A DNA stretch of 64,000 bases from the NCBI GenBank assembly GCA_965237745.1, contig OZ250156.1, positions 95,596-159,595 of the forward strand. The letters run 5' to 3'. The notes under the pieces were generated by a model, which saw nothing but the letters and a program-made list of their open reading frames with translations, searched no databases and was not told the origin of the DNA. The DNA is from Dehalococcoidia bacterium (lineage in GTDB: Bacteria > Chloroflexota > Dehalococcoidia > Lucifugimonadales > UBA3495). Of the stretch, positions 24,671-28,955 are shown one piece after another. The translations under genes were made by a program, and so were the position numbers. The stretch's first letter is position 1, and every line of letters starts with the position of its first letter.

Positions 24671-25732
24671 CTAGACCAGCACCGGTTCAGCGTTCTTCTG
24701 GTAGACCTGGAAGCGGTGCCGCATGGTGTCGGCGATGACGACTCGGCCACTGTCGTCCACCTTCACCGCGACGGGGGCCCAGAGGACCTTCTCGGGCGTG
24801 AAGTCGCGGACGCCGTTGCGCTGGCGGATCATGTCCGGGTTGGACGCAATCTTCTGCTCGCCCAGCTTGGACAGGGCGGCGTCGCCAGTGAACTCGGTGA
24901 TGAACCTGCCCTCGGGGGTCAGCACCTGCACCCGGTTGTTCAGCCAGTCGGCCACGTAGACGTCGCCGTCCTTGTCCACGGCCACGCCCGTGGGTCGGTT
25001 GAAGAGACCCACAGGGCGGTTGACCAAGTGGAAGCCGCCGTGGTCACGGGCGACGGAAGCATCGCCGCCGGTGCCGGGCTGTCCGAAGCTGGCCAGCCAC
25101 TGCCCATCGCTGGTGAAGGACTGGACGCGGTCGTTGCGCCAGTCGGCGATGAAGATGTTGCCTTCCGTGTCCAAGCCGATGCCCCAGGGAGTGTTCAGCT
25201 CGCCGGGGCCGCTACCGAAGCTGCCGAACTGGGAGATGTACTGTCCGTCCAGGGTGAACTTCTGCACCCGGCTGTTGCGGCTGTCCACCACGTATAGCAC
25301 GTCGTCGCGAATGGCCAGGCCCGCTGGCCGGTCCAGCTCGCCGTCGCCGGAGCCGTGCGTGCCCCAGTGGCTGACGTAGTTGCCGTCCTTGTCGAATATG
25401 GTAATGCGATGCAGATACTCGTCTGACACGTAGACGTTGGTCTCGCTGTCCAGGGCGAGGGACATGGGCCACATGAACTGGCCGGGGCCTTCGCCATAGC
25501 CACCGAACTCGGTCACGTAGTGTTCGGTCCCATCATCATCCAGGGTGAACAGGTTGATACGGGTGCCGTCAGAACGGGACTCGTAGGAACGGTTCACGAC
25601 ATAGATCGAGTTTTCCGGCCCGAAGGCGAAATCCATCGGGTTACGGAACCCGGTGCCTTGGAACTCGGATCGACCTGCGACATAACTATAGGTGAACGTG
25701 CGGTCGTTGATGCCGAGAAATACACTTGCCAC
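24671..25732 (-). CDS. NHL repeat beta-propeller protein (cassette A)
   Basis: 353-aa ORF with about six repeats of the type G.G.G.F..P.G.A.D..G..YV.D..N.R.Q.F. No signal peptide is evident. Confidence 0.75.
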   Translation of the reverse strand: MASVFLGINDRTFTYSYVAGRSEFQGTGFRNPMDFAFGPENSIYVVNRSYESRSDGTRINLFTLDDDGTEHYVTEFGGYGEGPGQFMWPMSLALDSETNVYVSDEYLHRITIFDKDGNYVSHWGTHGSGDGELDRPAGLAIRDDVLYVVDSRNSRVQKFTLDGQYISQFGSFGSGPGELNTPWGIGLDTEGNIFIADWRNDRVQSFTSDGQWLASFGQPGTGGDASVARDHGGFHLVNRPVGLFNRPTGVAVDKDGDVYVADWLNNRVQVLTPEGRFITEFTGDAALSKLGEQKIASNPDMIRQRNGVRDFTPEKVLWAPVAVKVDDSGRVVIADTMRHRFQVYQKNAEPVLV

Positions 25733-25798
25733 GGCTTGCCTCCTTAGTTGCTGCAGTTGCGGGGGCGCGTACGCCCGCCAAGCTCTGCACTACCTCGC

Positions 25799-25999
25799 TT
25801 ACACTACCTCGCTGGCTATACGGCCGATAACCCGCTGGACGACGGCGCTGATTGCGGCTACCACCCACTCAATCAGCGAACCGATGAGGTTCTTTCCCAT
25901 GTCTACGATGGCAGTGACTACCGTCTTGATTAGACCCAAGATAAATTGGAAGACTCCCCTTCCCTCTTCCGTTTCAGTGACGTCGTGTTCTTCCGTCAT
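25799..25999 (-). CDS. hypothetical 66-aa protein (acidic N-terminus, hydrophobic helices)
   Basis: MTEEHDVTETEEGRGVFQFILGLIKTVVTAIVDMGKNLIGSLIEWVVAAISAVVQRVIGRIASEVV. Lies between DUF1501 and the NHL gene. The RBS is weak. Confidence 0.35.
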   Translation of the reverse strand: MTEEHDVTETEEGRGVFQFILGLIKTVVTAIVDMGKNLIGSLIEWVVAAISAVVQRVIGRIASEVV

Positions 26000-26020
26000 G
26001 ATAGAACTCTCTTTTCCATC

Positions 26021-26058
26021 TGCCGGAGCGACGGCACATTGCCTGCCTCGCTCCGGCA
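26021..26058. other. intercistronic hairpin (11-bp perfect arms)
   Basis: TGCCGGAGCGA, 16 nt, TCGCTCCGGCA, located between the DUF1501 stop and the 66-aa ORF. Confidence 0.7.
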
Positions 26059-26102
26059 AAATTTTTCTGCTAGAGATGGACCGACTTTTTGCCGGCAGTC
26101 CG

Positions 26103-27239: not shown

Positions 27240-27287
27240 CGTCATTCCTCCGTATTCGTTGTGAGCGTATTCAGTCACTGTGGGATC

Positions 27288-27324
27288 GAGGAGCGAATGC
27301 GCTGTGGTTCTTCATTCACTCCTC
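27288..27324. other. intercistronic hairpin (12-bp stem, 13-nt loop)
   Basis: On the mRNA sense strand, GAGGAGUGAAUG pairs with CAUUCGCUCCUC (one G.U pair). Lies between the DUF1800 stop and the DUF1501 start. Confidence 0.7.
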
Positions 27325-27348
27325 AACCCTGGTTTCCCGGGATCCCGT

Positions 27349-28773
27349 TTAGCCGAACTGGAACTCCGAGGTGGTGGCAATCATCTGGAAGGTCTCGCCA
27401 GCCCGGCGGGCGAAGTCGGCCTGCTCCGCTTCCGAGTTGTGGCGCAGGTTGCCGCCTTGGGCCACGTGCCCCACGAGCTCCTCGCGGGTCTCGTCTGAGA
27501 TGGTCAGCGGGCCAACCAAGTCCAGGCAACCGTCCACCATCTGCTCTGCGGTAATGCTTTCGCCCTGGGCCATCAGGCGACCAACCATCGACTGCACGCC
27601 GGGCAGGCTCGTGTCGCCCAGCACCTTGGAGGCGAAGTTGATGCGGTCGATAAGGCTGCCGCTGTTGATCCACTCGCGGCCCATATGCCAGCCCTCAACC
27701 GTGGGCGGGTTGAGCAGGTCCAGGCCCATGTACTTCGGCTCCATGGCCACGAAGAACAGGCCGGGCTTGGGCTCGGTGTGGTCCTGGGCCATGCGCATGG
27801 TGCCGATGACCACGTCGGCCGGGCTCTTCACCTTGGCGTATCGGACCCCTTCGGCCTTGAAAAAGTCGCTGGTGAACAGCACCCGCAGCATTGCGCCGAT
27901 CTCGTAGCCGGAATCAAAGTAGGCCTTCTCCAGGGCTTCGATGGCGGCCATGTCGCGAGGCTCGGCCAGACGCCACGACGGGACCGGCGGCTCGTCGGCC
28001 ACGAAGAAGTCGTACAGCTTGCGGGCCACGAACCTGGCGGCGGCGGGCTGCTTGCAGATGATATCTACTACATCATCGCCGTTCCAGTTGCCGGTCTCGC
28101 CCAGGAAGGTCTTCTCGCTGTAATCGTGGTCAGCGGGGTCGAAACGGAACTCGAAGGGAGTGCGACCATAGGGGAACACCGGAATCGTCGGGGCCAGGTT
28201 CCACCCGGTGAAGGCTCGGGCGCAGGCCTTAACGTCGTCCTCGGTGTAGTTGAACTCGTTGTCCATGCCGACGCCCAGAGAGAACAGCTCCAGCAACTCA
28301 CGACCGTAGTTCTCGTTGACCGCGGTCTTGTGGCTCTCGATATTGTCCAGGTAGTACAGCATCGCCGGGTCGGTGGAGAGCCAAAGCAGCATCTCCTTGA
28401 AGTTGCCCATGCCCTTCTCGCGGAAGGTGTCGTACTGCATCGACGTGGTGCGGGCGTTGTCTACCTTGTTGTCGCCAGCGCAGAGGATGGTGTGCCAGAA
28501 CAGCGCCATCTTTTCCTTGAGCTGGTGCTTGTTGTTGATCATCCGGTAGACGATCTCGGTCTGACTCGTCTCGATAGCGGCCTTGTCGAAATACGACGGA
28601 TAGGCGCGATACAGCAGGTCTTCATCGAGGCCGGGGTCGTCGGTGGGGTTGAGCAACTCCTCAACCACGCTATCATAGCCCTGTCGCGCCCGGGCTTCGA
28701 TCTCGTTACGGCTGGCGCCGAAGCCGGCCCGCCGCAACAAGTGGGCCATCAGTGCAATATCTTGCTGGGACAT
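27349..28773 (-). CDS. DUF1800 domain protein, cassette A
   Basis: 474-aa ORF. The N-terminus MSQQDIALMAHLLRRAGFGAS starts directly at the conserved family motif. AAGGAGG RBS. Confidence 0.75.
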   Translation of the reverse strand: MSQQDIALMAHLLRRAGFGASRNEIEARARQGYDSVVEELLNPTDDPGLDEDLLYRAYPSYFDKAAIETSQTEIVYRMINNKHQLKEKMALFWHTILCAGDNKVDNARTTSMQYDTFREKGMGNFKEMLLWLSTDPAMLYYLDNIESHKTAVNENYGRELLELFSLGVGMDNEFNYTEDDVKACARAFTGWNLAPTIPVFPYGRTPFEFRFDPADHDYSEKTFLGETGNWNGDDVVDIICKQPAAARFVARKLYDFFVADEPPVPSWRLAEPRDMAAIEALEKAYFDSGYEIGAMLRVLFTSDFFKAEGVRYAKVKSPADVVIGTMRMAQDHTEPKPGLFFVAMEPKYMGLDLLNPPTVEGWHMGREWINSGSLIDRINFASKVLGDTSLPGVQSMVGRLMAQGESITAEQMVDGCLDLVGPLTISDETREELVGHVAQGGNLRHNSEAEQADFARRAGETFQMIATTSEFQFG

Positions 28774-28926
28774 CTATTCCTCCTTCTTTTCGGCTGGTAA
28801 TGCCTTGTCCTGATCTGCTCCGGCCTTCAGGACATCCGCCCTGCGGAACCCGGCGCAGATGTTTGAGGCAATCCAACAACGGGCAAGCAAATCCTGCGCG
28901 CTTGCTTACCCATCAAACGCACAATT

Positions 28927-28955
28927 ATTTAAGCCTCTGGGCCGTTCCTTGTCAA
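28927..28955 (-). promoter_or_regulatory. sigma70-like promoter of cassette A
   Basis: Minus strand: TTGACA (28955-28950), 17 nt, TTAAAT (28932-28927). This leaves a leader of about 150 nt. Confidence 0.5.

Follow-up and report, generated by a model that had tools for sequence, protein, structure and literature searches.

A duplicated DUF1800–DUF1501–NHL gene cassette without export signals in the Dehalococcoidia, a candidate cytoplasmic three-protein module

Two paralogous cassettes with the same gene order

The stretch of DNA considered here, henceforth the window, comprises 64,000 nucleotides of the genome of a Dehalococcoidia bacterium (assembly GCA_965237745.1, contig OZ250156.1, positions 95,596 to 159,595) and carries two copies of a three-gene cassette, A on the minus strand and B on the plus strand, each coding in the same order for a DUF1800 protein, a DUF1501 protein and an NHL β-propeller (Table 1). 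The proteins of both copies lack recognizable export signals, and the three genes stay together across all related genome loci that were collected. An initial annotation, made from the letters of the sequence, had recognized both cassettes and had judged their products to be roughly two-thirds identical; both are present, and end-to-end pairwise alignment of the paralogues gives 64% identity for DUF1800, 62% for DUF1501 and 56% for NHL (E-values of 0 to 5e-34), the last figure covering the N-terminus of NHL A against the 86-residue part of NHL B. On these alignments the likeness of the paralogues is far beyond chance.

The DUF1800 proteins score 348 (A) and 344 (B) bits with Pfam PF08811 against a cut-off of 26.1, covering positions 1-418 of the 419 in the model. 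The DUF1501 proteins score 81 and 76 bits with PF07394 against a cut-off of 27, an alignment confined to the C-terminal third; their homology to members of the twin-arginine translocation (Tat) type extends over the full length, with residues 8-377 of the phmmer query aligned to residues 39-405 of such a protein. NHL A reaches 121 bits with PF01436 (cut-off 20), with four repeats scored. As in the classical pairs of these families, DUF1800 and DUF1501 are adjacent and co-oriented in both cassettes. NCBIfam offers no informative family for the trio proteins, and the PADLOC defence models match neither DUF1800 nor DUF1501, with only a repeat match at E 0.0076 for NHL.

Loss of the export signal

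The presence of signals was judged from the first start following a stop codon, Shine-Dalgarno sites, a scan for twin-arginine (RR) motifs and the mean Kyte-Doolittle hydropathy over 19 residues (KD19). No N-terminal hydrophobic region, transmembrane segment or twin-arginine signal is found in the window proteins (maximal KD19 mean at most 1.04). Shine-Dalgarno sites of the AAGGAGG/GGAGG type lie 5-9 nt ahead of each chosen start, and only DUF1501 A can be extended upstream, by 13 non-hydrophobic residues (GTG at 27278). With the starts pinned down by stop codons and Shine-Dalgarno sites, no upstream signal peptide is possible; upstream in-frame starts adding such peptides, named in the initial annotation as the observation that would speak against its proposal, were looked for and are ruled out on these grounds. 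The 82 related genome loci described below likewise encode no signals: the maximal open reading frame (ORF) usually adds nothing, and in the rare longer ones the extension is charged and non-hydrophobic, with a conserved internal Met placed behind a translated Shine-Dalgarno site. The HLLRRAGFG stretch of DUF1800 was considered as a cryptic Tat motif and rejected, being followed by a charged stretch, lying in confidently modelled helices and forming part of the Pfam core.

The significance of this absence emerges from comparison with the wider DUF1501 family, which the literature describes as a Tat substrate of unknown function. An exhaustive HMMER search with DUF1501 retrieved 12,927 cluster representatives (50% identity clusters) at E up to 0.001, and among the best 150 of these the 134 full-length sequences were examined for signals. 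An RRxFLK-type motif is present in 123 of the 134, on an extra 35-55 N-terminal residues that are absent from the window proteins. Representatives bearing the RR motif are 35-42% identical to the window protein, whereas the signal-less ones are closer, at 42-58%. The suggestion that the cassettes encode a signal-less, and hence most likely cytoplasmic, version of these proteins is borne out by this comparison. However, in several exported pairs (L083, L088, L094) DUF1800 has no signal of its own while its DUF1501 partner carries a Tat signal, and it may be co-exported with that partner. Since the DUF1800 of exported pairs is often also without a signal, the lack of one on the DUF1800 of the trio is not diagnostic, and only the signal loss on DUF1501 is. 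The special status originally accorded to all six proteins on this account thus holds for DUF1501 but not for DUF1800.

Conserved linkage and ancient cassette lineages

Related genome loci, 82 in number and extending down to 58% identity, belong by record name to the Dehalococcoidia, SAR202 or Chloroflexota, except for one metagenome-assembled genome (MAG) labelled Proteobacteria (L049). DUF1800, DUF1501 and NHL are adjacent on one strand in 82 of 82; 81 hold all three genes, and the remaining one (L062) is cut at the DUF1800 end. A further 80 signal-less loci from metagenomes display three orders, namely DUF1800-DUF1501-NHL (34 loci), DUF1501-DUF1800-NHL (12) and DUF1800-NHL-DUF1501 (12), the others being mostly cut by contig ends. 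Genes that remain linked although their order has changed are classically taken to be functionally coupled. Further, signal-less DUF1501 representatives at 42-52% identity are also accompanied by an NHL gene, while no NHL gene accompanies the five exported pairs that were inspected, from Miltoncostaea, Chondrinema, Vibrio and two metagenome contigs (L088, L093, L094 and L095 among them).

The trio recurs outside the Chloroflexota as well. A signal-less DUF1501 (P0180), 38% identical to that of the window, and its relatives in Micromonospora musae and Mycobacterium sp. SM1 are flanked by DUF1800 upstream and NHL downstream, with end-to-end similarity of 36% and 32%, respectively. The gene-neighbourhood check suggested at the outset therefore finds the linkage with NHL conserved throughout: it holds for every one of the 82 genome loci, for metagenome loci in three arrangements, and for Actinobacteria at 32-38% identity.

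The 82 loci fall into at least three cassette lineages, A with 16, B with 37 and C with 29 members. The assignment is consistent across the three components, whose pairwise distances correlate at r = 0.89-0.94, and two cassette types occur together in many genomes. These lineages are old, and the whole cassette was duplicated as a unit long ago in the SAR202-type Chloroflexi, the window holding one A and one B copy. These two copies probably differ in specificity. The trio proteins are 75-95% identical between species; between lineages NHL is the fastest-diverging component, at 43-58% identity versus 58-67% for DUF1501.

Certain loci depart from the simple trio in having arrays in which one DUF1501 is shared among several DUF1800-NHL pairs. 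Variant arrays are seen at L052 and L058 (5.7-13.9 kb), L070 and L009; one form consists of DUF1800-NHL, DUF1800-DUF1501 and DUF1800-NHL in succession, amounting to three DUF1800, two NHL and one DUF1501 genes, and other forms are DUF1800-DUF1501-DUF1800-NHL and a tandem duplication of NHL.

Predicted structures and the putative active site of DUF1501

The AlphaFold2 model of DUF1501 A (mean predicted local distance difference test, pLDDT, 90; predicted template-modelling score, pTM, 0.90) retrieves with Foldseek only members of the alkaline-phosphatase superfamily, namely S1 sulfatases, LtaS, EptC/MCR-1 and YejM, with probability 1.0 and E of about 4e-6 but with template-modelling (TM) scores of 0.35-0.46 and about 10% identity. 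This agrees with the earlier view of DUF1501 as sulfatase/phosphatase-like. In a set of 85 Tat-type and signal-less sequences the residues G17, G18, D20, S86 (in >90%), H87, D250, H252, E293-R297, N301, D306 and H307 show no variation or almost none. In the model the predicted sites lie after β-1 (D20), at the N-terminus of the next helix (S86/H87) and after later core strands, a superfamily-like placement, and DUF1501 models as a putative alkaline-phosphatase-superfamily enzyme with the invariant Asp, Ser-His and Asp-His residues kept. The features it would share with that superfamily are the core fold, the Asp following β-1, a nucleophile where the next helix starts and an Asp-His pair further on. 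It differs from S1 sulfatases, LtaS, EptC/MCR-1 and YejM/PbgA in the low scores just given, in having Ser-His as the candidate nucleophile, in lacking a C/S-x-P-x-R motif and in a relation that is undetectable at the sequence level. The strings nearest to such a motif, SNPRY and CEPET, fit neither the formylglycine motif nor its position.

The AlphaFold2 model of DUF1800 A, taken from database proteins only, is of moderate confidence (pLDDT 80, pTM 0.86) and mostly helical with a small β element; a PDB sequence search returned nothing. A 617-residue homologue (P0271) also matches PSD1 (PF07587) and PSD2 (PF07624) in precomputed assignments, and DUF1800 B matches PSD2 at E 0.007. These weak matches hint that DUF1800 and the planctomycete partners of DUF1501 could be related.

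NHL A is readily matched to solved structures, the PDB sequence matches being the NHL domains of TRIM71 and Thin, with E-values down to 1e-56 (6d69, E 1.6e-56). Six-bladed NHL repeats are common to the trio propellers, the TRIM-NHL proteins (TRIM71, Thin, Brat) and bacterial forms such as the PknD sensor domain and ScyF. The trio NHL differs from all these in being a stand-alone, probably cytoplasmic protein of 330-350 residues with a conserved insertion of about 40 residues before the last blade, an unusual feature that the actinobacterial NHL proteins also possess. Membership in ScyF is defined by a score above the equivalog cut-off together with a PEP-CTERM tail; at 168 bits with the ScyF model (NF035926; cut-off 350), NHL A falls outside it.

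Relation to known systems

The classical DUF1800-DUF1501 operons (PF08811 and PF07394; COG5267 and COG4102) occur in Proteobacteria, Bacteroidota, the Planctomycetes-Verrucomicrobia-Chlamydiae (PVC) group and others. They have in common with the trio the adjacency and co-orientation of the same two families, usually with DUF1800 first, and the same invariant DUF1501 residues. The classical pair carries a twin-arginine signal on DUF1501 and lacks NHL, whereas in the trio DUF1501 is signal-less, starting 8 residues before β-1, and NHL is the constant third gene. In the planctomycete pairs of DUF1549/DUF1553 (PSCyt/PSD) with DUF1501, the latter is likewise associated with a large helical partner; however, those pairs are exported, and their partner proteins contain cytochrome-c as well as other export-side domains.

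The families of the trio have attracted notice in SAR202 before. Saw et al. (2020, mBio, PMC6946804) placed COG3391, COG4102 and COG5267 in a list of this clade's 50 most abundant COGs and found them mutually correlated, devoting one sentence to the three, which they termed uncharacterised. The operon as such, the absence of signals, the division into paralogue lineages and the occurrence in Actinobacteria are not treated in that work. The idea of a three-component unit, as put forward in the initial annotation, gains from the conserved linkage, but the co-expansion of the corresponding COGs in SAR202 was already on record. No paper on the operon or the signal loss was found, in a searched literature that is thin on DUF1501.

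Association with importers in Actinobacteria

In two of the actinobacterial loci (L090, L091) the trio lies directly behind, and partly overlaps, a gene for a Peripla_BP_2 binding protein. At L091 genes for a FecCD permease and an ABC ATPase are found upstream, and at L090 the contig stops immediately before the binding-protein gene. In Mycobacterium (L092) the importer is situated about 1.5 kb upstream of the trio. These importers belong to the BtuCDF/Fhu/haem class, with all matches below the NCBIfam equivalog cut-offs. Additionally, two solitary signal-less DUF1501 genes from metagenomes are placed directly behind importers, one (L111) behind a FecCD-type and the other (L160) behind a Dpp/Opp-type system. 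This association suggests an imported substrate.

Proposed function and alternative explanations

Each cassette would, in the interpretation favored here, be a self-contained operon encoding a cytoplasmic three-protein module. DUF1501 would be its catalytic subunit, a distant alkaline-phosphatase-superfamily enzyme keeping the Asp, Ser-His, Asp-x-His and Asp-His residues, and the most likely chemistry would be a metal-dependent reaction in which a phospho- or sulfo-ester is hydrolysed or transferred via a serine nucleophile. DUF1800 would serve as the obligatory partner of DUF1501, as in the exported two-gene systems, while NHL, the third component that only the signal-less clade possesses, would probably bind the substrate or present it. 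Tat-exported DUF1800/DUF1501 pairs would be the ancestors of the module, with the signal lost and the substrate now imported. We infer the complex of the three proteins, their roles as subunits, the chemistry and the nature of the substrate from these observations, and consider the reading as a whole, that of a cytoplasmic metallo-hydrolase or transferase module duplicated as a cassette into at least three old lineages, to have about an even chance of being correct. The bolder proposition that it constitutes a distinct, previously undescribed cytoplasmic enzyme system, in which a Tat-exported pair moved inside, recruited a propeller and became coupled to ABC importers, is tentative and in our view rather doubtful. 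The monoderm distribution of the signal-less trio, mainly in Chloroflexota and Actinomycetota, is as judged by record names.

Several observations weigh against this interpretation. The structural likeness of DUF1501 to known enzymes of the alkaline-phosphatase superfamily is weak by TM score, a PDB sequence search with it found no match even with the 85-sequence profile, and the C/S-x-P-x-R motif of S1 sulfatases is missing, the nucleophile position reading L-S-H-F-R-S. DUF1800 found no match in a PDB fold search (best E 0.78), and the least confident loops of its model (143-151 and 357-371) are those with the most conserved, invariant motifs. The literature terms the function of members of these families unknown. 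Further, a FecCD/Peripla_BP_2 importer was found near none of the 80 SAR202-type genome loci and not in the window, for which reason the importer link comes from a few related actinobacterial loci and one metagenome contig.

The importers nevertheless invite a specific version of the favored interpretation, in which a metal chelate or tetrapyrrole (a corrinoid, haem or siderophore) is imported and then processed by the trio in the cytoplasm, for example by releasing the metal or remodelling the ligand, as by phosphodiester cleavage. The trios of M. musae, L090 and Mycobacterium sp. SM1 stand behind a type II ABC importer, for whose permease and ATPase the BtuC, corrinoid and haem models give the highest scores, and whose binding protein is of the Peripla_BP_2 family; the same importer type directly precedes the signal-less DUF1501 at L111, and a DtxR-like repressor and a ferritin gene are found 3-5 kb upstream at L001. 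However, the sub-threshold importer matches, the interrelated actinobacterial loci (which make for few independent observations), the Dpp/Opp-type importer at L160, the lack of any such importer at the SAR202-type loci and in the window, and a leader devoid of a cobalamin or other riboswitch by Rfam make this version rather unlikely. A little less probable still is a non-enzymatic complex with a structural, regulatory or sensing role, in which DUF1501 is a pseudo-enzyme and NHL a scaffold or nucleic-acid binder. Such a role would be in keeping with the RNA- and protein-binding TRIM-NHL domains that are the closest solved relatives of the propeller, with the lack of a recognizable catalytic fold in DUF1800, and with the name of COG3391, which derives from a DNA-binding propeller. 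It is at odds with the invariance of the putative metal and nucleophile residues of DUF1501 in both Tat-type and signal-less members, with an identity of 75-95% between species that is typical of strongly constrained enzymes, and with the importer link.

Export without an N-terminal signal, be it by hitch-hiking on the Tat system, in vesicles or with a small hydrophobic ORF as the anchor, appears improbable. Hitch-hiking on a Tat-bearing DUF1501 is plausible for the often signal-less DUF1800 of exported pairs, but in the trio no protein has a signal, leaving no carrier within the operon. Similarly, cassette A does contain a small hydrophobic ORF, which, however, is missing from cassette B and most loci; and though the literature reports DUF1800 proteins from the vesicle fraction of Entotheonella, through the coupling to ABC importers the proteins are assigned to the side of the cytoplasm. 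Wrongly called starts, a recent duplication or faulty assembly could be entertained as the origin of the pattern in view of the damaged genes and insertion sequence (IS) elements in the window, but the data already refute them: identity between the copies is no more than 56-64%, the starts are fixed as described above, and each copy has orthologues of 91-97% identity at syntenic positions, next to TenA, L9 and DnaB for A and next to hopanoid genes for B.

DUF1800/DUF1501 pairs are common across bacteria without an assigned function, and the present analysis separates a probably cytoplasmic three-gene variant, which stays linked despite reordering, from the exported two-gene form. SAR202 is a globally abundant ocean clade implicated in the turnover of recalcitrant dissolved organic matter, and the signal-less trio is among its most abundant gene sets and highly conserved between species. 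Should the bolder proposition be true, the cassette duplications in SAR202 would represent an intracellular hydrolase family acting on different imported compounds of marine dissolved organic matter, possibly metal chelates or phospho- or sulfo-esters, in parallel with the known expansions of monooxygenases and enolases. The cultured carriers M. musae and Mycobacterium sp. SM1, with the trio near an importer of a defined class, make genetics and biochemistry feasible.

Regulatory elements and other features of the window

Cassette A looks like a complete operon, with a promoter, a leader, a Shine-Dalgarno site before every gene and a terminator (Table 1). Aligned with L003-L011, the TTGACA box shows no variation, and conservation of the AT-rich element and of TTAAAT is at least 90%. 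The hairpin in the leader is kept in the closest relatives with almost no covariation, and no Rfam family matches it; an Rfam search of the leader and the whole window returned two tRNAs only. The AT-rich element or the hairpin may represent an operator or a leader structure. The 66-residue ORF between DUF1501 A and NHL A (maximal KD19 1.82) is found at the same place in L003-L008 with 47-74% amino acid identity and in-frame indels. It is confined to one A-type cassette lineage, being missing from L001 and the more distant A-type loci, and diverges much faster than the neighbouring genes.

Table 1. Features of the two cassettes and of their surroundings in the window
Feature	Position	Strand	Description
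DUF1800 A	27349-28773	minus	474 aa; Pfam PF08811, E 1e-103; AAGGAGG 5 nt before ATG
DUF1501 A	26103-27239	minus	378 aa; Pfam PF07394; GGAGG before ATG; putative catalytic subunit
NHL A	24671-25732	minus	353 aa; GTG start after AAGGAGG; six-bladed propeller; Pfam NHL, E 6e-36
DUF1800 B	60992-62410	plus	472 aa; Pfam E 2e-102; AAAGGAGGAGG before ATG
DUF1501 B	62525-63664	plus	379 aa; Pfam PF07394; GAAGGAG before ATG
NHL B	63743-64000	plus	first 86 aa; gene cut by the window end
Cassette A promoter	28927-28955	minus	-35 TTGACA (28955-28950), 17-nt spacer, -10 TTAAAT (28932-28927)
AT-rich element	28974-28956	minus	ATTATTATTCTTGAATCAGT; directly upstream of the cassette A -35 box
Cassette A leader hairpin	28881-28911	minus	GGGTAAGC ... 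GCTTGCCC; within the ~150-nt 5' leader
Small ORF	25799-25999	minus	66 aa; hydrophobic/amphipathic; between DUF1501 A and NHL A
Terminator-like hairpin of cassette A	24569-24599	minus	14-bp stem followed by a T run; ~70 nt past the NHL A stop
Cassette B promoter-like site	60804-60832	plus	TTGACA, 17 nt, TATATT; from sequence reading only
Perfect inverted repeat	62428-62468	plus	14 bp, 13-nt loop, no T run; between DUF1800 B and DUF1501 B
Class I methyltransferase	23741-24550	minus	in-frame TGA at 24176-24178
SDR gene	29042-30058	minus	repeat at 29363-29458; true C-terminus in ORF 29158-29430
ISAs1-like transposase	59278-60686	plus	DDE_Tnp_1_assoc; two overlapping frames
IS630-like transposase	32704-33816	minus	DDE_3
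DnaC/IstB-like AAA+ protein	18337-19713	minus	458-aa ORF; two ATPase modules
Two tRNA genes	31372-31552	minus	between the SDR genes and the IS630-like element

The cassettes are flanked by ordinary chromosomal genes in a synteny common to relatives, with L9, DnaB and TenA beside A and hopanoid genes beside B, and the best genome matches to the window are Dehalococcoidia/SAR202/Chloroflexota MAGs, several of them from sponges. Across 80 loci, the other conserved neighbours reflect only lineage-specific synteny, each in at most 30 loci. They include genes for MoaB-like, enoyl-CoA hydratase, HIT and TenA proteins, flavin mononucleotide (FMN)-dependent monooxygenases (FMNO), hopanoid genes, Dpp-type transporters and CO-dehydrogenase-like genes.

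Two genes close to cassette A are damaged. The gene for a class I S-adenosylmethionine (SAM) methyltransferase has its in-frame TGA at the exact place of a Cys in four relatives of 73-92% identity (…DLIT[C]RVAAHHF); a nonsense mutation or sequencing error is the likeliest cause, with selenocysteine as a conceivable reading of the codon. In the short-chain dehydrogenase (SDR) gene an exact 38-nt repeat with 58-nt spacing, a tandem duplication of a length not divisible by 3, shifts the frame; the gene is a pseudogene or reflects an assembly error. The ISAs1-like transposase lies directly upstream of cassette B, and in relatives the hopanoid genes are nearer to the B-type cassette. The two-module AAA+ protein adjoins DnaB and is kept in A-type relatives (cluster c16).

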